Source of the DNA: Flavobacteriales bacterium
Lineage (GTDB): Bacteria > Bacteroidota > Bacteroidia > Flavobacteriales_F > PHOS-HE28
DNA: 58,277 nt
Reading direction: 5' to 3'
Assembly: GCA_036405935.1 (NCBI GenBank)
Contig: DASWWQ010000030.1
Location: 1-58,277 of the forward strand
Every line of letters begins with the position of its first letter. The first letter of the stretch is position 1. This document shows positions 3,883 through 58,277 of this stretch, in pieces. Both the position numbers and the translations under genes were made by a program. The notes beneath the pieces are model-generated. The model saw only the letters and a list, made by a program, of their open reading frames with translations. It made no database searches and was not told the DNA's origin.

Positions 3883-5898
3883 ATGTCCCGACCCACCAAC
3901 CGCCTCGCGCAGGAAAGCAGTCCCTACCTGCTGCAGCACGCGCATAACCCGGTGGACTGGTATCCCTGGGGTGAAGAGGCCTTCGCGAAGGCCCGCTCCG
4001 ACAACAAGCTGGTACTGATCAGCATCGGTTACAGCAGTTGCCATTGGTGCCATGTGATGGAGCGGGAGTGCTTCGAGAACGAAGCGCTGGCCCAGGAGAT
4101 GAACGCGCGCTACGTCTGCATCAAGGTGGATCGCGAGGAACGGCCGGATGTGGACCACATCTACATGAACGCCGTCCAGCTGATGACCCGGCGGGGCGGT
4201 TGGCCCTTGAACTGCTTCACCCTGCCCGATGGCCGGCCGATCTACGGGGGTACCTACTTCCCGCCCGATCAATGGAGACAGGTACTGCAGGACCTCGACG
4301 CCACTTGGAAGGGCGATCCGGGCAAGGTGGCCGGATATGCAGCGCGGCTGCATGAAGGCGTACAGGCCAGCGACCTGGTGCATCCTCCGGACGAACCCGT
4401 CGACTTCGATCGCAACCTGGCCCGCCACATCTCGGAGGCCTTGGAGCACGACTTCGACCGGGTGTTCGGCGGCGCCGACCGCACACCGAAGTTCCCGCTG
4501 CCCAACACGTATGAGTACCTGCTGCATCATGCCGTGCATACCAAGGACGCTACGGTGGAACAGCACGTGCGCCTCACGCTGGACAAGATGGAGCAGGGCG
4601 GCCTCCACGATCAGGTGGGCGGAGGCTTCGCACGTTACAGCGTGGACGCCCGTTGGAAGGTGCCGCACTTCGAGAAGATGCTGTACGACAATGCGCAACT
4701 GGTCCAACTCTACGCCAAAGGATACCAGGTATTCAGCGACGAAGCCTACCGCCGCGTGGTGGAACGCACCATCGGTTTCCTGCAGCGCGAGCTGATGGGT
4801 TCCGACGGGCTTTTCCAAAGTGCGTTGGATGCCGACAGCGAAGGCGTGGAAGGCCTCTTCTACGTCTGGACCCGGGCGGAAGTGGACCATCTGCTCGACG
4901 AGGAGGCAGCCTTGGCACGCTCCTACTTCTGCATGGATGACCGGGGGCTGTGGGAGCACGACCGGTACATCCTGCTGCGCGATGGGGGTGATGGAGCTTT
5001 CGCATCCCGCATGGGCATCAGCGTGGAGGAACTCCGCCAACTCATCGATGGCATCACGGACAAGCTGCTCCACGCGCGCGCCGATCGGGTCCGCCCGGGC
5101 CTGGACCACAAGGCGCTCACCTCCTGGAACGCGATGATGATCACCGCGCTCTGCCACGCGGCGGATGCATTGGAGGTGCCCCACCACCTGCAACTCGCGC
5201 AGCGCACGATGGGTGCATTGCTGCAACACTGCCGGAGACCCGACGGCGGGTTGTGGCGCACCTGCGTCAACGGCAGGGCCGGCATCAACGGCTTCCTGGA
5301 GGACCATGCCTTCACCATCGAGGCGTTGCTAACGCTGTACCAAGCGGACTTCGATCCGCGTTGGATCGAGGAGGCCAGGATCTTGGCCGAATACACGGTG
5401 ACGCATTTCCATGATGAACGGACAGGACTGTTCTGGAGCACCAGCGACCTGGATCCGGCGTTGATCTCGCGCCCCATGGAAGTGCACGACAACGTGATCC
5501 CCGCATCCAACTCCACCTTGGCCAAAGCGCTCCACACCCTGGGCCATCTCATCGAAGAACAGCGATGGATCGATCTGGCCGAGGGCCAGCTCCGCGCCGT
5601 GCTTCCGCAAGTGATGGAGCATCCGGCCAGCCACACCAACTGGGGCCTGCTGTTGTTGGACCTCGTCTTCCCGTATCCGGCCATCGCCATCGTCGGGGCC
5701 GAAGCGAACACCCTGCGCCGCACCTTCGGCAGGACCTTCATTCCCTCGCGGCTCTTCCTGGGCACGACGGGCACGAGCACATTGCCGCTGTTGGCCGAAC
5801 GCCCCGCCACCGATCGTACGATGATCCATGTCTGTGAACACCGCAGCTGCCGCATGCCCGTGGCCACGGTGGAGGAAGCCCTGCAGGAGCTGTCATGA
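3883..5898 (+). CDS. thioredoxin domain-containing protein (DUF255 / YyaL-SPATA20-like, with alpha-toroid C-terminal part)
   Basis: [63 protein letters not shown]...[12 protein letters not shown] is the classic DUF255 N-terminus. The start is placed at ATG 3883 ([10 protein letters not shown]) rather than the upstream GTG at 3817. Confidence 0.9.
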
Positions 5899-15662: not shown

Positions 15663-16568
15663 ATGCTCCAACGCATCAAAGCCGTTTTCCGTCCTTGGGT
15701 ACCAGCGGTGGTCCGCCAAGCCGCAGCGCGTAGACGTGCCCGTCAGGAGCGCGAGCGCCATGCGGCCACCGAGCGCCTGTTGTTCCAGCCGGCCGTCGGT
15801 CCGGCGTGGCTCGGCCGGACCGAACTGGAGGAGCTGTGCCGGACCTACGCGGCACCTCCCAGCTACGGCTATGGCGCGGATGCCTTGGAGGAGCGCGGCC
15901 GCCAGCGGGCGAAGGAGCTGATGGCCGCACATCCGGAGGCCCGGCGCTTCCTGGACCTCGGCTGCCTGGACGGTATGACGGCCGCGGCACTGCAACAGGC
16001 CGGCAAGGATGGACACGGCATCGACCTCGTGGAGCAGCTCGACCCGCGCGCGGCCGCGGCCGGGGTTCGTTTCCGGCGCATGGATGCCATGGCCTTGGAA
16101 TATCCCGGCGATCATTTCGACGTGGTCCACTCCTTCAATGCCTTCGAACATTTCGGTGATCCGGCGCAGGTGCTCCGCGAAGCGTTGCGCGTAACACGGC
16201 CCGGTGGACGGGTGCATCTGCATTTCGGTCCCTTGTACGGCTCCGCGAAAGGGCTGCACGCCTACTACAAGATCCCCGTGCCATACTGCCAGTTCCTGTT
16301 CCCCCTGGAGCTGATGAACACGTACCTCACCGAACGCGGCGTGGAGCCCTTGGACCCCGGTCATTGCAACGGATGGACGGTCCAGCAGTTCCGCGATCTG
16401 TGGTCCAGCATGCGCGACCGAGCCGATATCCTGGAGCAGGCGGAGTACTACCACACCGCCGACCTGGATATCGTACGCCGCTTCCCTTCCTGCTTCCAAG
16501 GAAAGGTGCAGCAGTTCGATGACCTCATCGTGAACAACCTACGGGTGGTGCTGCGCAAACGCGGCTGA
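15663..16568 (+). CDS. class I SAM-dependent methyltransferase
   Basis: FLDLGCLDGMTAAALQQAGKDGHGIDL (motif I), DAMALEYPGDHFDVVHSFNAFEHFGDP and LRVTRPGGRVHLHFGP. Confidence 0.8.
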   Translation: MLQRIKAVFRPWVPAVVRQAAARRRARQERERHAATERLLFQPAVGPAWLGRTELEELCRTYAAPPSYGYGADALEERGRQRAKELMAAHPEARRFLDLGCLDGMTAAALQQAGKDGHGIDLVEQLDPRAAAAGVRFRRMDAMALEYPGDHFDVVHSFNAFEHFGDPAQVLREALRVTRPGGRVHLHFGPLYGSAKGLHAYYKIPVPYCQFLFPLELMNTYLTERGVEPLDPGHCNGWTVQQFRDLWSSMRDRADILEQAEYYHTADLDIVRRFPSCFQGKVQQFDDLIVNNLRVVLRKRG

Positions 16569-51640: not shown

Positions 51641-52221
51641 GGCGTTCCGCATTCAACGATGCAACCCACCGCTTTCATTTCGAGCGTGCTTCTTCCTTGA
51701 TCGATCAACGCGTGCAGGGCCTCGGCAAGGTGGTGTTGCGCAGGACCGGGCTTCTTCCGGCCCGGGCGAACAGCGGTATCATCGATGGCACCGCGATAGC
51801 GCAGCAGCCCGTCCGCATCCAGCACGAAGGCCTCGGGCGTCACCCGCGCTTGCAAAGCCCCGGCCACGGCGCAGTCCGCATCCATCACCTGGGCGAAATC
51901 CAGATGCCCTTCCGCTGCGAAACGGGCCGCAGCATCCGCTTCGATGAAGGTGGTGGGGTAGAGTCCGATGAAGGCGACACCTTCGGGCGAGAATGCACGG
52001 GAGAGACTATCCAGCACATTCGTGTACGCCTGGCTGAACGGGCATTCCGGATCCAACGTGATGATGACCGTGGCCCTTGCACCGAGCAGGCTGCGCAATA
52101 CCGCTGTACCTCCGGAAGCCTCGTGCACCGCCCTATCCTGCAGATCGGCCAAGGGAGGCCGCCCCTGGCCGCAGGCCAGCAGACCCGTCAACGGAAGCAG
52201 CAGGAACGATCGGCGGAGCAC
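51637..52221 (-). CDS. redoxin / TlpA-like thioredoxin-fold lipoprotein with CxxS active site
   Basis: Start placed at GTG 52221 (VLRRSFLLLPLTGLLACGQ lipobox). VIITLDPECPFSQAY occupies the position of the WCxxC motif. The longer track ORF to 52338 would overlap the divergent DUF4230 gene. Confidence 0.7.
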   Translation of the reverse strand: MLRRSFLLLPLTGLLACGQGRPPLADLQDRAVHEASGGTAVLRSLLGARATVIITLDPECPFSQAYTNVLDSLSRAFSPEGVAFIGLYPTTFIEADAAARFAAEGHLDFAQVMDADCAVAGALQARVTPEAFVLDADGLLRYRGAIDDTAVRPGRKKPGPAQHHLAEALHALIDQGRSTLEMKAVGCIVECGTP

Positions 52222-52276
52222 GCCGCGAAAGTAGCGCCCTGAAAACGGCGGATCTTTGTACCCCCAAAGGCCCGAA

Positions 52277-52906
52277 ATGAACCGCATCCTGCGCCTGCTG
52301 ATCGCGCTGGCCCTGTGCCTGCTCGTGTTCTTCATCACCCGTGAGGTCTACCGTCCGGAGGCTTCCTCCGAGCAGGTGTCCTCCACCGTGCTGCTCGAAC
52401 GCATCCGGCCGGTGATGAAACTGATCACGGTGGAAGGGGACTTCAGCGAACTGTACACCTACCGCAATGCCGAAGCACCGATGGACTGGATGAAGCAGTT
52501 CAGCCCGTTCCAGAAGCGCGCGATCCTGCGGGTGAAAGGGCGTGCCAGTGTCGGCTATGACCTGGAGGACATGGGGCTCCGTTTCGATGACGCCACGCAC
52601 ACCGTCAGCCTGGAAGGCATGGAGAAGCCCCAACTGCTTTCGCTGGAGCACGATGTGGACTACTTCGACCTGGAAGCAGGCACCTTCACCGACTTCACCG
52701 CGGCCGACCACAGCCGCATCAACGCGCAGGCCAAGGAGCTGATCCGCAAGCAGGTGGCGGCCAGCGGGCTGTACGGGGCGGCCGAGGCCCGGCGCAGCGA
52801 ACTGATCACGGTGGTGAAGGCCATGGTGGAGAATGCCGGCTGGACCTTCGTGGACGGTGCATCGCCCCGGGATGGTCGTGCCCGCTTGGCCCCCCTTCCC
52901 GCCTGA
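52277..52906 (+). CDS. DUF4230 domain-containing protein
   Basis: N-terminal TM, then LLERIRPVMKLITVEGDFSELYTY...AILRVKGRASVGYDLEDM. Start at ATG 52277. Confidence 0.75.
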   Translation: MNRILRLLIALALCLLVFFITREVYRPEASSEQVSSTVLLERIRPVMKLITVEGDFSELYTYRNAEAPMDWMKQFSPFQKRAILRVKGRASVGYDLEDMGLRFDDATHTVSLEGMEKPQLLSLEHDVDYFDLEAGTFTDFTAADHSRINAQAKELIRKQVAASGLYGAAEARRSELITVVKAMVENAGWTFVDGASPRDGRARLAPLPA

Positions 52907-52945
52907 ACACCGGCACCGATAACTTCGCCCCGCATTCCCCGAACC

Positions 52946-55393
52946 GTGTCCTTTCCCCCGCTCAAGTACTGTCCCTCGCTGACGCACTACGAGCGTTGGC
53001 GCACGCGCGAGGTGCGTATCGGGAACATCGGCATCGGTGGCGCCAACCCCATCCGGGTGCAGAGCATGACCACCACGGACACGATGGACACCGCGGCCAC
53101 CGTGGCGCAGAGCATCCGCATGATCGAGGCGGGTTGCGAGCTGGTGCGCATCACGGCGCCCAGCAAGAAGGACGCGGAGAACCTGGCACCGATCAAGCAG
53201 CAACTGCGTGCCGCCGGTTTCACGGCACCCTTGGTGGCCGACATCCACTTCACGCCCAACGCGGCGGAAGTGGCGGCGCGCATCGTGGAGAAGGTGCGCG
53301 TGAACCCCGGCAACTACGCCGACAAGAAGAAGTTCGATGTGCGCGAGTACACGGACGACCAGTACGAGGCCGAGCTGGAACGCATCCGTGAGCGTTTCAC
53401 GCCGTTGGTGCGCATCTGCAAGGAGCACGGCACGGCCATGCGCATCGGCACCAACCACGGCAGTCTCAGCGACCGCATCCTGAACCGCTACGGCGACACG
53501 CCGCAGGGCATGGTGGAGAGCGCCTTCGAGTTCCTGCGAATCTGCCGCGACGAACAGTACCACGACATCGTGCTGAGCATGAAGGCCAGCAACGTGCAGG
53601 TGATGGTGCAGGCCTATCGCCTGCTGGTGCACCGCATGATGGAGCTGGGCTGGGACTATCCGTTGCACCTCGGTGTCACGGAGGCCGGCGATGGTGAGGA
53701 CGGGCGCGTGAAGAGCGCCGCCGGTATCGGTGCTTTGCTGGAGGACGGCATCGGCGACACGGTGCGTGTATCGCTCACGGAGGAACCCGAAGCCGAGATC
53801 CCGGTGGCCCGTGCGCTGGTGGATCGGTACGGCACCCGCGCCGGGCACGATCCGATCCCTGACCTCACCCCCGGCCCCTCTTCCGGGGAGAGGGGTGCCA
53901 GTGCTCCGGACGACCGGTTCCGCGAAACGACGAACTCGTTCCTGTGGTCGAAGTTGATCGAACGCGCGAAGGCCATGCGCAGCAACCCCACTGGAGCGGA
54001 GCAGCTGATGTGGGAGACGATCCGGGGAAAGACTACCGGCAGCAGGATCCGTCGGCAGCATATCATCGACAAGTACATCGTGGATTTCGTGTCCATGCCG
54101 AAGCAGCTTGTGATCGAGATCGATGGTGACCATCACGATCTGCAGCAGGAAGAAGATGCGGCAAGGACCGAGCACCTCGAAGCGCGAGGGTTCAAGGTGA
54201 TCCGATTCCGCAACGATGAGGTTCTTCGTGATCCGCAAGCCGTGCTCGACAGCATTGTCCATGCATTGGACCAACGTCCCGACTTCGCCAGGGAGGATGA
54301 AGGTCCGGATGGAACACCAACGGATGTGGGTGGAGAGCATTCCTCCCCCTCTCCTCGGGAGAGGGGGCTGGGGTGTGAGGTGCTGGATCCGTTCACGCAC
54401 GCACGTCGCCACACCCGCGAAGTGCTCAACATCGGTGCGCGCCATGTGCCGGTGGTGATAGCCGATCTCAGCGGCAAGGAGCGCATCACGCCCGCCACGC
54501 TCTTCGCTTGGGGTTACCGGTACAGTGTGCCGCTGGACAAGTGGAACATCACCGACCAGGCCTGCGACTACGCCTTCATCGGAAAACACACGATCGACTT
54601 CGGGATCCCCGGCACGCTGGGGATCGTGCAGGAACATGCGACCTGGCTCCGCAACACGGAAAAGGAACGCCACTATCCGCAACTGACGAAGGCGCAATAC
54701 CTCGGTGGTTCGCAGCGGCATGCGAAGCTGAACATCGTGTATGCCTTGTTGAAGGACCTCGACGAGGAGTTCATCGCACGGCTCAAGGACGACCCCACCG
54801 CCGTGCTGCTGATCGATACCTACAATGCGCACGGCATGGCCGAGCAGCGCCGCTTGATGATGGAACTGATGCGCAACGGCTGCGAGGTGCCGGTGATCGT
54901 CGGGCGTGCTTACGGCAACATCACGAACGATGAGCTTGTCCTGCACAGCAGCACCGACATGGGTCCGCTCTTCCTCGATGGCCTGGGGGATGGCATCTTC
55001 ATCGCCGATGAGCAGGGTGGTCGGGAGGACCTGGTGTGCCGCACCGCCTTCGGCATCCTGCAGGCCACACGGACGCGCACCAGCAAGACCGAGTACATCA
55101 GCTGTCCGAGCTGCGGCCGCACGCTCTTCGACCTGCAGGAGACCACGGCCCGTATCCGGGCCCGCACGAGCCACTTGAAAGGGATCAAGATCGGCATCAT
55201 GGGCTGCATCGTGAACGGTCCGGGCGAGATGGCCGATGCCGACTACGGCTACGTGGGCACCGGTCCCGGCGTGATCACCCTCTACAAGGAGAAGGAAGTG
55301 GTGAAACGCAACGTGCCCAGCGCCCAGGCCGTGGACGAGCTGATCGAGCTGATCCGTTCACACGGGGACTGGGTGGAGGCCGTGGAGCCTTGA
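52946..55393 (+). CDS. ispG: 4-hydroxy-3-methylbut-2-en-1-yl diphosphate synthase (flavodoxin), long form, carrying an extra ~172-aa insertion
   Basis: Contains REVRIGNIGIGGANPIRVQSMTTTDT, HLGVTEAGDGEDGRVKSA, and the 4Fe-4S module YISCPSCGRTLFDL...GIMGCIVNGPGEMADADYGYVG. The ORF is uninterrupted for 815 codons, with GTG at 52946. Confidence 0.92.
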   Translation: MSFPPLKYCPSLTHYERWRTREVRIGNIGIGGANPIRVQSMTTTDTMDTAATVAQSIRMIEAGCELVRITAPSKKDAENLAPIKQQLRAAGFTAPLVADIHFTPNAAEVAARIVEKVRVNPGNYADKKKFDVREYTDDQYEAELERIRERFTPLVRICKEHGTAMRIGTNHGSLSDRILNRYGDTPQGMVESAFEFLRICRDEQYHDIVLSMKASNVQVMVQAYRLLVHRMMELGWDYPLHLGVTEAGDGEDGRVKSAAGIGALLEDGIGDTVRVSLTEEPEAEIPVARALVDRYGTRAGHDPIPDLTPGPSSGERGASAPDDRFRETTNSFLWSKLIERAKAMRSNPTGAEQLMWETIRGKTTGSRIRRQHIIDKYIVDFVSMPKQLVIEIDGDHHDLQQEEDAARTEHLEARGFKVIRFRNDEVLRDPQAVLDSIVHALDQRPDFAREDEGPDGTPTDVGGEHSSPSPRERGLGCEVLDPFTHARRHTREVLNIGARHVPVVIADLSGKERITPATLFAWGYRYSVPLDKWNITDQACDYAFIGKHTIDFGIPGTLGIVQEHATWLRNTEKERHYPQLTKAQYLGGSQRHAKLNIVYALLKDLDEEFIARLKDDPTAVLLIDTYNAHGMAEQRRLMMELMRNGCEVPVIVGRAYGNITNDELVLHSSTDMGPLFLDGLGDGIFIADEQGGREDLVCRTAFGILQATRTRTSKTEYISCPSCGRTLFDLQETTARIRARTSHLKGIKIGIMGCIVNGPGEMADADYGYVGTGPGVITLYKEKEVVKRNVPSAQAVDELIELIRSHGDWVEAVEP
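53861..54378 (+). mobile_element. in-frame DUF559 (Vsr-like / PD-(D/E)xK-type endonuclease) cassette bounded by two GC hairpins, nested in ispG
   Basis: IspG residues ~306-478 read ...LWSKLIERAKAMRSNPTGAEQLMWETIRGKTTGSRIRRQHIIDKYIVDFVSMPKQLVIEIDGDHHDLQQEEDAARTEHLEARGFKVIRFRNDEVLRDPQAVLDSIV..., which is the DUF559 pattern. The flanks are CCCCTCT-tccgggg-AGAGGGG (53875-53895) and CCCCCTCT-cctcggg-AGAGGGGG (54345-54367). The boundaries are approximate. Confidence 0.55.
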
Positions 55394-57298: not shown

Positions 57299-58277
57299 TC
57301 AGAACACGGCCGTGCTGACGCGTTTGGCCTCCTTCTCGGCATCGTCCAAACGCATCAACAGGTCGGAGCGTAGCGCCTCGAAGGCCGGACGGTCCGCCGC
57401 TGCAATGGGCTCCGCGCTGGGGAACTCCTCCCGACGATGGTCCACCTGCTCCCCGTTCTTCCAGAAGCGGAAGCACACATGGGGGCCGGTGGCCAGACCC
57501 GTGCTGCCCACTTCGCCGATCACCTGGCCCTGTTGCACCAACTGGCCGGTACGCACGAGGGTCTTGCGCATATGCAGGTACTGGGTGGTGTACACACCGT
57601 TGTGCCGCACCTTCACGAAGTTGCCGTTCGCTGCGCTGTAGCCCGACTTCTCCACCACTCCATCGCCCACGGACAGGATCGGTGTGCCGTAGGGAGCCGC
57701 GTAGTCCGTGCCCAAGTGGGCCTTGTAGCGCTTCTGCACCGGGTGGAAACGGCGCATGGTGAAGCCCGAGGAGACCCGGCTGTACTTGAGCGGTGCCTTC
57801 AGGAACGCCTTGCGGAGGCTGTTGCCGTCGGTGTCGAAATAGGCGGTGGAGGTGCTGTCGCGTCCGAAGAGGAAAGCCTCCTTGGTCACCGCCCCTTCGT
57901 AGCGTACGGCCAGGATGTCCGGAGAGCCGTAGGGCTCGCCGTCCACGGTGCGTTCGCGATAGACCACGGTGAAGCGGTCGTTCTTCCGGATGCGGTAGAA
58001 ATCGAGGGTCCAGGCGAACACCTCGCTGAGCTTCATGGTGAGCGAGGGATCCACACCCGCCTTCTGCAGGTCGTTCCAAAGCGCACCGGTCACGGCCACG
58101 CTCACGCTCTTCTCCTCGGTATGTACGGGCCGCTGCCCCACTTCCACCGAGAGGGGTGCGCGCAGGTTGAAGATCACATGGTCCACCGCATCGGCCTCGT
58201 ACACGAAGTAGCTGGGCACGCGGGCCTGGTCATCGGTGAAGATCAACGCATACGGGTGACCGGCGCGCAGGCGACGG
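57299..58277 (-). CDS. M23 family metallopeptidase (5' end beyond the window)
   Basis: HLGTDYAAPYGTPILSVGDGVV...GNFVKVRHNGVYTTQYLHM...GEVGSTGLATGPHVCF is the LytM/M23 pattern. The track start at 58246 is a TTG, and the frame remains open upstream (..RRLRAGHPYA) to the window edge. Confidence 0.85.
   Translation of the reverse strand, partial: RRLRAGHPYALIFTDDQARVPSYFVYEADAVDHVIFNLRAPLSVEVGQRPVHTEEKSVSVAVTGALWNDLQKAGVDPSLTMKLSEVFAWTLDFYRIRKNDRFTVVYRERTVDGEPYGSPDILAVRYEGAVTKEAFLFGRDSTSTAYFDTDGNSLRKAFLKAPLKYSRVSSGFTMRRFHPVQKRYKAHLGTDYAAPYGTPILSVGDGVVEKSGYSAANGNFVKVRHNGVYTTQYLHMRKTLVRTGQLVQQGQVIGEVGSTGLATGPHVCFRFWKNGEQVDHRREEFPSAEPIAAADRPAFEALRSDLLMRLDDAEKEAKRVSTAVF

Follow-up and report, generated by a model that had tools for sequence, protein, structure and literature searches.

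The stretch of DNA considered here (the window, 58,277 nt of a Flavobacteriales contig) carries an ispG gene whose open reading frame (ORF) includes, at 53861-54382, a segment encoding a second and unrelated domain. This segment is probably a selfish cassette for a DUF559 nuclease of the Vsr/PD-(D/E)XK fold, which has no start or stop codon of its own and is tolerated as a domain insertion in a linker of the IspG protein. Such a reading is carried by an intact and constrained nuclease, by conserved and co-varying ends, by in-frame copies in other genes that form site-specific lineages, by the presence or absence of the cassette between alleles, by a series of decay products, and by tethers that are predicted to be disordered. 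The coordinates of the features are collected in the table.

Features of the chimeric ispG gene and of the cassette within it (window coordinates)
Feature	Position	Strand	Description and basis
Chimeric ispG ORF	52946..55393	+	815 aa plus stop; long-form IspG with in-frame cassette; ORF list, Pfam, NCBIfam
IspG TIM-barrel (A) module to last host residues (...HDPIP)	53003..53860	+	Pfam GcpE residues 20-299; left junction after P305 (alignment with empty alleles)
Left terminal unit, inverted orientation	53861..53895	+	Tip GACCTCACCCC, then CGG, then hairpin CCCCTCTTCC-G-GGGAGAGGGG; encodes DLTPGPSSGERG; repeat finder
Cassette lead segment (..ASAPDDRFRETTNSF..), start of the N-terminal helix of the nuclease module	53896..53953	+	Lead motif conserved; AlphaFold helix 16-41
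DUF559 (PF04480) nuclease domain, IspG residues 337-441	53954..54268	+	Pfam, 3hrl_A sequence match, AlphaFold, Foldseek, dN/dS
Acidic low-complexity cassette tail (DQRPDFAREDEGPDGTPTDVGGE)	54269..54337	+	'RPDF' plus acidic tail also in LeuRS and mutase copies; pLDDT < 50
Right terminal unit, TMECO/BoxC-like	54338..54382	+	CATTCCT, hairpin CCCCCTCTCC-TCG-GGAGAGGGGG, CTG, GGGGTGTGAGG-TG; encodes HSSPSPRERGLGCEV; repeat finder, 10-bp perfect stem
IspG resumption (LDPFTHARRH...): A* module and C-terminal 4Fe-4S module, C720/C723/C754/E761	54383..55390	+	Alignments; Pfam GcpE, GcpE_C listed for P0018

The host of the cassette is IspG from end to end, as an earlier note on this DNA had proposed. The GcpE family is matched by Pfam in two stretches of the ORF (E = 2.4e-129), and the NCBIfam model of long-form IspG, TIGR00612, scores 476.9 bits against a cut-off of 280. 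A second NCBIfam model, PRK02048, reaches 766.6 bits and remains below its cut-off of 886 because the insert splits the match. The three modules of the long form are all recognizable in the sequence, namely the TIM barrel, the A* module, and the 4Fe-4S module with three cysteine ligands and one glutamate ligand, and every column invariant across 92 homologues is retained, including C720, C723, C754 and E761. The frame of 815 aa is uninterrupted by stops in the ORF list of the window, in agreement with the claim that neither a stop nor a frameshift accompanies the insert. The window chimera is represented by the NCBI protein record P0018 of the same contig ('MAG TPA Flavobacteriales bacterium', a metagenome-assembled genome, MAG), and the identical arrangement at identical nucleotides is present in a second, independent assembly, GCA_035910415.1 (protein P0019, locus L001). 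An assembly chimera, which had been named as a possible alternative, is very unlikely because this independent assembly shares the arrangement at the nucleotide level. Between the window and L001, the host part of the gene shows a dN/dS of 0.04-0.12, and ispG looks functional by its sequence. The strand antisense to ispG holds an ORF of 1013 aa (52133-55174, minus strand), a typical stop-poor antisense frame of high-GC DNA, for which no evidence of a gene was found.

The boundaries of the cassette were set by DNA comparison with related alleles, which assigns to it 522 nt, or 174 codons, corresponding to residues 306-479. The previously proposed start at 53861 agrees with this comparison, while the proposed end at 54378 is moved to 54382. 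The insert begins with D-L-T at its left junction and ends with C-E-V at its right one, where L comes next, and the G+C content within the insert is 0.565-0.60 vs 0.62-0.71 in the flanks. The lead segment has no start codon of its own. The GC-rich hairpins at both edges pair as imperfect inverted repeats of 41 nt (53866-53906 and 54335-54375, 78% complementary by the repeat finder). In the window copy, the left hairpin contains one stem mismatch, and the tail of the right unit has an irregularity of 2 nt relative to L001. The hairpin motif has no other occurrence in the 58-kb window, where 0.07 chance matches are expected, and no second DUF559 was found in the window. Two weak look-alikes, at 58136-58156 (CCCCACTTCCACCGAGAGGGG, 3 mismatches) and 16484-16506 (CCCTTCCTGCTTCCAAGGAAAGG), are devoid of the GGGGTGAGG tail and are probably chance matches. 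The DNA folding z-scores of the end units range from -0.7 to -2.3 against shuffles of equal GC-rich composition, the right unit of the window reaching -2.3; such values are only modest, and thermodynamic stability alone is not taken as evidence.

The inserted domain was described earlier as a full-length DUF559 nuclease with its acidic core retained, and this description is upheld by the PF04480 match (E = 8.6e-33, 112.9 bits, cut-off 20.6), which covers profile positions 3-108 of 109. DUF559 and MTES_1575 are the only Pfam families matched in the insert, and the NCBIfam model of YcjD-type DUF559 proteins, PRK09767, is matched with E = 6e-19, below its equivalog cut-off. In an alignment with 17 free DUF559 proteins, all invariant columns are retained, including the acidic and histidine core. 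The conserved set consists of E352, W356, R370, Q371, D380, E391, D393, G394, H397, D404, R407, R420 and N423 in IspG numbering (E47, W51, R65, Q66, D75, E86, D88, G89, H92, D99, R102, R115 and N118 in insert numbering). The solved DUF559 protein 3HRL (3hrl_A) is matched at the sequence level with E = 1.5e-15, and it is also the top Foldseek match of the AlphaFold model of the insert (core pLDDT 87-96), with a TM-score of 0.86 and an rmsd of 2.4 Å. The second match is the catalytic domain of the homing endonuclease I-Bth0305I (3r3p_B; TM-score 0.74, E = 1.6e-4, 23% identity), and Vsr follows far lower, with a TM-score of 0.43. The earlier label of a Vsr-like enzyme is refined by these scores, the domain being nearer to 3HRL and I-Bth0305I than to Vsr itself. 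Over the 105 codons of the nuclease core, dN/dS between the window and L001 is 0.095. By these comparisons, the nuclease is shown to be complete and under purifying selection, and it looks functional. The peptides at its two ends (insert residues 1-14 and 146-173) have pLDDT < 50, and residues 308-333 and 445-485 are disordered in the model of the whole chimera, which was built from an IspG-only alignment and has low confidence in the insert because just two sequences cover it. The peptides encoded by the ends, rich in Gly, Pro, Ser, Glu and Arg, are thus predicted to be disordered. Membership in a known defence system was considered and rejected, as the PADLOC match (to a methyl-directed restriction enzyme, E = 1e-4) and the PHROG matches (of unknown function) are weak.

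The cassette of ispG is not a single case. The earlier note had proposed a search for further units of the hairpin-DUF559-hairpin type, and a large family in other housekeeping genes was revealed by searches of proteins and genomes. An exhaustive profile-free search of 1.84 billion representative proteins yielded 20,557 relatives, the best 150 of which were inspected; an earlier word-indexed protein search with the insert had returned 17 short proteins only and missed the embedded copies. Many of these best 150 are long proteins with an internal DUF559 match. Their hosts, as defined by Pfam, include LeuRS, queuine tRNA-ribosyltransferase, RecJ (with the DHH domain split), TPR-SpoIIE phosphatases, Type ISP and Eco57I restriction enzymes, SpoIID, glycosyltransferases, trehalase, the CCA-adding enzyme and a polysaccharide-synthesis protein. 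The anatomy is recurrent: the host is followed by a hairpin-type peptide, the lead (Y/F-H/R-T-T-D...W), DUF559 and another hairpin-type peptide, after which the host resumes. In the LeuRS-borne copies the lead motif RF(R/H)ETT(N/D)..W is conserved.

A genome scan with six close sequences as the query covered one genome per GTDB species, and the best 80 of 377 relatives were analysed. In 72 of these 80 the cassette shares the frame with a host protein of at least 150 aa (about 65 are internal, the others lie at or near the host C terminus), and eight copies are free-standing. LeuRS is the host of 43 copies, followed by a MeaB-methylmalonyl-CoA-mutase fusion (6, at two sites), acetyl-CoA synthetase (5), HisD, the histidinol dehydrogenase (4), TGT (4), HsdM (2) and RecJ (2), with family III CoA-transferase, iPGM and others as further hosts. 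Altogether, a cassette with like inverted ends is present in at least 15 functionally unrelated enzymes. Unlike free copies, for example P0004, the embedded copies lack a start codon. According to the record titles, the carriers belong mostly to Bacteroidota and Patescibacteria, with single cases in Chloroflexota, Fibrobacterota, Victivallales and Neomarinimicrobiota. The LeuRS site (...RSEGAxxxF / ... / VFTTRPDT, the slashes marking the junctions) is identical in Bacteroidota and Patescibacteria.

In a neighbour-joining tree of the nuclease cores, the clusters follow the host site. The IspG copies of the window and L001, which are 79% identical, pair as sisters next to LeuRS copies of Flavobacteriales, the latter being 66-77% identical to the window copy; those of the mutase group in a single clade that is nested within the LeuRS copies. 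The simplest reading of this topology is a LeuRS-resident lineage with rare jumps to new sites, of which ispG would be one, and the window cassette is probably such an off-site jump within a large family. A separate observation concerns the Flavobacteriales MAG JADKJM01, which contains three diverged cassettes (L009, L012 and L061): one in LeuRS, one in the mutase fusion and one free-standing. Its putative IspG (P0112, 649 aa) is probably cassette-free, and the occupancy looks to be decided site by site, not genome-wide. Further proteins of the Eco57I or Type ISP kind (P0143, 1214 aa; P0151, P0152, P0164 and P0260) contain, between their methylase and specificity modules, one DUF559 domain or two, which may be either cassette insertions or native nuclease domains. 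In the trehalase P0256 (786 aa), at least five tandem peptides of the 'NLNPGPSPAERGENL' type, which are translated end units, surround DUF559 (residues ~430-560 and 690-720), and the end units can evidently multiply in tandem inside a coding sequence.

The terminal units are a part of the element and not of its hosts. They are ~35-45 nt long, inverted with respect to each other, and each consists of a C-arm/G-arm hairpin with a GGGGTGAGG tail. The ends G(A/C)CCTCACCCC...hairpin and hairpin...GGGGTGAGG(T/G)C are common to the cassettes of LeuRS, of the MeaB-mutase fusion and of IspG, with unrelated host flanks, and the left-end unit of the window recurs at the left end of the LeuRS, mutase-fusion and L001 IspG cassettes. 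This recurrence, together with the 41-nt repeats, supports the original description of the cassette as hairpin-bounded. The bases of the tips vary by lineage yet stay reverse-complementary, being GAC...GTC in LeuRS and IspG and GCC...GGC in the mutase and in the remnant of locus L003. In the 80 loci taken together, the density of pyrimidine/purine hairpin units is ~30-fold higher within 150 nt of DUF559 than in the remaining sequence, and the units keep a strict orientation, with 40 left vs 1 right unit upstream and 25 right vs 1 left unit downstream. Comparison with an empty LeuRS (L004: ...GNDF / IEVFTTRPDT) revealed no target-site duplication at LeuRS, and no other units were found within the 58-kb window or the 22-kb L001 locus. 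Eight loci (L009, L010, L011, L015, L019, L034, L040 and L066) additionally contain, in frame in LeuRS, a solo right-oriented unit similar to the triplex motif (TM) described below, ~+760 to +820 nt downstream of DUF559, which suggests another permissive site or a hot spot in LeuRS. Two others (L012 and L013) have a nuclease-free inverted doublet of a left and a right unit in the MeaB-mutase ORF, ~-916 and -880 nt upstream of DUF559; this doublet looks like a derivative of the REPIN type or of the type of miniature transposable elements with inverted repeats (MITEs).

The history of the site was traced by comparison with 16 and then with 120 close IspG proteins (77-92% identical), 94 of which could be anchored at the linker. 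The insertion point belongs to the linker that joins the TIM barrel to the A* module, as was stated earlier, and about 65 of the 94 relatives have nine residues there (e.g., PAIDAPPYD or PEVAQVPVD). In about 25 of the 94, the linker is enlarged by ~10-23 residues of a Gly/Pro/Ser/Arg/Glu peptide such as SPLLGRGAGGE, corresponding to solo units, and in P0021 it holds 55 residues of this type. The nuclease itself is present in two of the 120 proteins, P0018 and P0019, and absent from 118, contrary to the alternative that the segment is a native part of the A* domain. The ends of L001 are cleaner than those of the window, with identical junctions. The locus of P0021, L003, has junctions as in the filled alleles, an interior of only ~40 nt and an extra right unit, and has the look of a derivative that arose by internal deletion. 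In L004 and L005, right-type units, solo or double, lie at the right junction of the cassette, and this junction is common to the window, L001, L003 and the solo unit of L004; the three loci L003, L004 and L005 carry MITE-like derivatives. In the L003 remnant (3925-4090) the tips are GCC...GGC, those of the window and L001 being GAC...GT(G/C). Such co-variation within one site could be a sign that the site was invaded independently or that the two ends evolve as a pair.

The empty allele L002 has an unrelated linker of 21 nt at this position, and no target-site duplication at ispG is seen by comparison with it. L002 is the sister of the filled L001 (dS 0.20-0.25), and each of them is at ~0.55-0.65 from the window; moreover, L002 keeps the ancestral 9-aa linker common to P0022-24. 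Therefore, there were at least two gains of the cassette, or it passed from one allele to another, or a replacement removed it. The synonymous divergence (pS) between the window and L001 is 0.64 in the nuclease core (95% confidence interval 0.52-0.79) vs 0.43 in the host (0.38-0.48), and one of 5,000 host subsamples reaches the value of the insert. The G+C content at third codon positions (GC3) is 0.72/0.67 in the insert vs 0.87/0.86 in the host. By these measures, the insert is older than the host gene or foreign to it. Along the gene, L001 and L002 are 93-100% identical except in the windows spanning the insertion, around which L001 is nearer to L003 and to the window allele than to L002. 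In the first 30 nt downstream of the insertion, L001 matches L003 at 27 of 30 positions and L002 at 23, a pattern suggestive of co-conversion.

The closest known systems share some of these properties. EDxHD/Vsr-like homing endonucleases, e.g., I-Bth0305I (Dassa et al. 2009, PMC2677866; Taylor et al. 2011, PMC3239194), are alike in nuclease superfamily and fold, and they have been grouped with DUF559 (PMC3424549). They and the cassette appear as selfish DNA at conserved sites of essential genes, are polymorphic in presence and absence, and form lineages tied to the host site. The EDxHD enzymes reside in group I introns, between the halves of split inteins or as free-standing genes, and have N-terminal NUMOD or helix-turn-helix domains, whereas the cassette is a direct in-frame insertion with terminal units that are conserved and inverted, and its translation would be that of the host protein. 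No intron, intein or extra DNA-binding domain was detected in the cassette by Pfam of the insert and Rfam of 53400-54900. Inteins with homing endonucleases are similarly found in frame in essential conserved genes, encode a nuclease, rely on the transcription and translation of the host and occur sporadically; unlike them, the cassette has neither a Hint domain nor splice-junction residues and apparently stays in the mature protein. The insert is apparently tolerated since it is located in linkers or loops, between tethers modelled as disordered.

The second group of similar systems comprises palindromic repeats. Rickettsia palindromic elements (RPEs) and intragenic MITEs (PMC10969869) resemble the cassette as palindromic selfish DNA that lies in frame in many unrelated metabolic genes and is translated. 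The solo units and doublets of L003, L004 and L005 behave like RPEs, which are ~150 bp long, non-autonomous and have no known associated enzyme, whereas the full cassette has a nuclease gene between its repeats. The full cassette is not a MITE because it encodes an enzyme; terminal inverted repeats are present, and no target-site duplication was found. In the REPIN-RAYT system, short palindromic units reportedly occur singly or as inverted doublets, and an associated nuclease-type gene is flanked by units. The cassette has the same composition of single and doublet palindromic units and one unit-flanked nuclease-type gene. The RAYTs are homologues of Y1 (HUH) transposases and the REPINs are extragenic, whereas the enzyme of the cassette is of the Vsr/PD-(D/E)XK fold and its gene, like the units, lies within coding sequences.

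An additional relationship is indicated by the structure of the right unit. TMECO is a G/C-rich intrastrand-triplex motif, equated with BoxC and exemplified by CCCTCTCCCTGTGGGAGAGGGCCGGGGTGAGGGC (Holder et al. 2015, PMC4666352). Escherichia coli MG1655 has 23 copies of it, five as inverted pairs, and 3,610 occurrences were counted over 262 genomes of Proteobacteria; the triplex that it forms in vitro is stable, and the motif goes together with local variability of the genome and was reported as intergenic, without an assigned function or associated gene (PMC4666352). The cassette units likewise occur both as solo units and as inverted pairs and go with local genome variability, but lie inside coding sequences. 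They have the three-block design of TMECO (a C-rich arm, a G-rich arm and a second G-rich block, GGGGTGAGG), and the right unit, CCCCCTCTCC-TCG-GGAGAGGGGG-CTG-GGGGTGTGAGG, agrees with its block description. The identity to E. coli TMECO units is 26-31 of 37 aligned positions, above shuffles for most units, and to type-B TMECO 29-31 of 37, vs at most 24-26 in shuffles. The strict published pattern, CCCTCNCCC-N3-6-GGGNGAGGG-N3-GGGNGAGGG, has no matches in the window and the 80 related loci, where the first loop is shorter (1-3 nt vs 3-6 nt), and it does match the E. coli unit adjoining ycjD. By sequence, the cassette units are best called TMECO-like and not members of TMECO.

The E. coli unit just mentioned is of interest because ycjD is a DUF559 gene. 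In MG1655, where ycjD lies between fabI and sapF (locus L086, NC_000913.3, 1349500-1352500; the 3' features of ycjD are at locus positions 1700-1930), TMECO no. 9 is located ~170 nt 3' of ycjD, on its coding strand and in the right-end orientation. By rough arithmetic, the chance of 23 random units falling that near one gene of 354 nt is ~0.004. The ycjD ORF ends in ...RRSPSP and a stop inside a degenerate TM hairpin, which is followed by a ~45-nt duplicate of the ycjD 3' end and then by TMECO/BoxC unit no. 9 in full. A perfect hairpin of 16 bp lies upstream of ycjD, and its tips (CACCTCA/TGAGGTG) resemble those of the cassette. The fabI-TM-ycjD-sapF segment is whole in 3,346 of 5,426 complete E. 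coli genomes; in ~2,000 others, homology ends 40 nt before the TM unit, and a TetR regulator and RND efflux genes come next (L087, UPEC 536). This polymorphism was considered as an empty site and rejected, since there is no clean unit-bounded empty site and the alternative strains have a different gene set. Strain ETEC6 has IS1 in the ycjD region. No link of BoxC/TMECO to ycjD or DUF559 was found in the literature, in which subscription journals were thinly covered. DUF559 genes are enriched near inverted repeats that were scored as putative programmed inversions, with an odds ratio of 14 (PMC9881135).

If the cassette is a selfish element, it would be expressed by read-through translation of ispG, and the cell would make a working IspG with the nuclease domain on two flexible tethers. 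The fusion would remain a working enzyme because the site is a naturally variable inter-domain linker, buffered by the flexible repeat-encoded tethers. The nuclease would cut alleles that lack the cassette, or DNA to which the end units give structure, and the use of the filled copy for repair would spread the cassette in a homing-like manner. Off-site jumps would be rare, and one of them may have led from the dominant LeuRS-resident lineage into ispG. Later internal deletions would leave doublets or solo end units, such as those persisting in frame in the linker of many relatives. The embedding itself would shield the cassette from ordinary decay because a frameshift or a stop would destroy an essential enzyme.

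Several points weigh against this account. The low dN/dS could reflect selection for a well-folded, harmless insert and not for catalysis. The window copy, the ends of which are slightly degenerate, may no longer be mobile, because of the mismatch in the left stem and the 2-nt irregularity of the right tail. The filled alleles are not a simple split of the empty site, as seven linker codons are replaced. The signal of co-conversion spans a short ~12-25 nt, and a part of it is confounded with the linker, which cannot be aligned; the model of the whole chimera has low confidence in the insert. The 58-kb window also leaves room for a second, uninterrupted ispG elsewhere in the genome. Finally, terminal repeats are not needed by classical homing, yet the ends are conserved across host genes, which points to an end-directed mechanism.

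Such a mechanism, the strongest of the alternatives, would be an end-directed transposition analogous to REPIN/RAYT or IS200/IS605, in which the DUF559 protein would move or copy anything bounded by the structured units (a hairpin or an intrastrand triplex), whether cassettes, doublets or solo units. The site preference would then result from selection for tolerated in-frame positions and not from a sequence-specific homing cut. We consider it rather unlikely, but since classical homing does not explain the conserved ends, it is kept at a substantial probability. It would account for ends that are conserved whatever the host gene and tips that co-vary, for the strict orientation of the units, and for the doublets and solo units scattered in frame in LeuRS, in the mutase gene and in the IspG linker of ~25% of relatives. 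The lack of a target-site duplication is as in single-strand hairpin transposons. The 23 TMECO/BoxC units of E. coli with 5 inverted pairs (PMC4666352), the single DUF559 gene of E. coli, ycjD, with units at its 3' end, and the enrichment of DUF559 genes near inverted repeats (PMC9881135) fit as well. The nuclease lineages, however, are strongly specific to the host site, and one LeuRS site is occupied in both Bacteroidota and Patescibacteria; therefore, homing fits better than promiscuous transposition. The absence of other units from the window and the 22-kb L001 locus also counts against end-directed movement, and we know of no PD-(D/E)XK/Vsr-fold protein that acts alone as a transposase. 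The homing-like and end-directed models are not mutually exclusive.

An immobile relic is less probable still. The insertion would be ancient and fixed, the nuclease inactive or irrelevant, and the ORF open only because a stop or a frameshift kills IspG. The degenerate terminal units of the window and the missing start codon agree with this explanation, and location in an essential gene is sufficient for nonsense and frameshift mutations to be selected against. The dN/dS of 0.095, however, indicates selection against missense changes too, as strong as that on IspG, and all invariant DUF559 columns, including the D/E/D/H set, are intact. The empty sister allele and the excess of synonymous divergence argue for a recent gain or loss.

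A functional fusion, in which DUF559 was recruited for a regulatory or moonlighting role in IspG, is very improbable: the domain is under purifying selection and retained in two diverged genomes, but it is absent from 118 of the 120 close relatives, the sister allele included, its codon composition is foreign to the host gene, decay products lie at the same ispG site, and the like cassette with like inverted ends sits in all those functionally unrelated enzymes. Hardly credible is an insert that is spliced out as an intein or intron or is an assembly artefact: although it lies in frame in a conserved essential gene, as inteins do, and its complementary ends could pair in RNA, there is no Hint or intein match in Pfam, no Cys/Ser/Thr after either junction, no terminal His-Asn and no splice residues at the junctions of other hosts (the earlier note had also discarded an intein), the frame is kept in 72 of 80 copies, which RNA splicing would not need, and the two independent assemblies, which agree on the junction nucleotides, are joined by dozens of independent MAGs with the same design. 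A known intron or ribozyme was likewise rejected, as cmscan of 53400-54900 on both strands gave no Rfam match at E <= 1.

The selfish DUF559 cassette thus combines components that are known separately, i.e., the nuclease fold, homing endonucleases of essential genes, in-frame palindromic elements and triplex repeats, in a combination that is new. The earlier note knew of no description of the arrangement, and no prior description of an unspliced in-frame DUF559 cassette was found in the literature, although subscription journals were thinly covered and the absence is not proof. There is a substantial chance that the element deserves recognition as a class of its own. A broader proposal, about which we are slightly more doubtful than confident, is that hairpin/triplex-bounded DUF559 cassettes form an unrecognised class of mobile elements carried as unspliced tethered domains, that their end units are the source of the BoxC/TMECO-type repeats found across bacteria, in-frame doublets and solo units among them, and that YcjD-like nucleases are the enzyme behind such repeats.

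Selfish nuclease genes are thought to persist in essential genes only inside self-splicing introns or inside inteins. The case of ispG and its ~70 parallels in LeuRS, TGT, RecJ, acetyl-CoA synthetase, the B12-dependent mutase, HisD, iPGM and other enzymes suggest a third, splice-free route, in which the nuclease is placed between two flexible repeat-encoded tethers in a surface linker and is carried by the host protein. If true, this would account for many odd insertions in the housekeeping proteins of Bacteroidota and Patescibacteria, with effects on annotation, phylogenetic markers and structure prediction, and protein engineering would gain from the cassettes a natural map of the sites at which domain insertion is permitted, together with linkers ready for use. 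It would also give an origin to the BoxC/TMECO triplex repeats and to the genome instability near them, and a biological role to DUF559, a large uncharacterised bacterial family.

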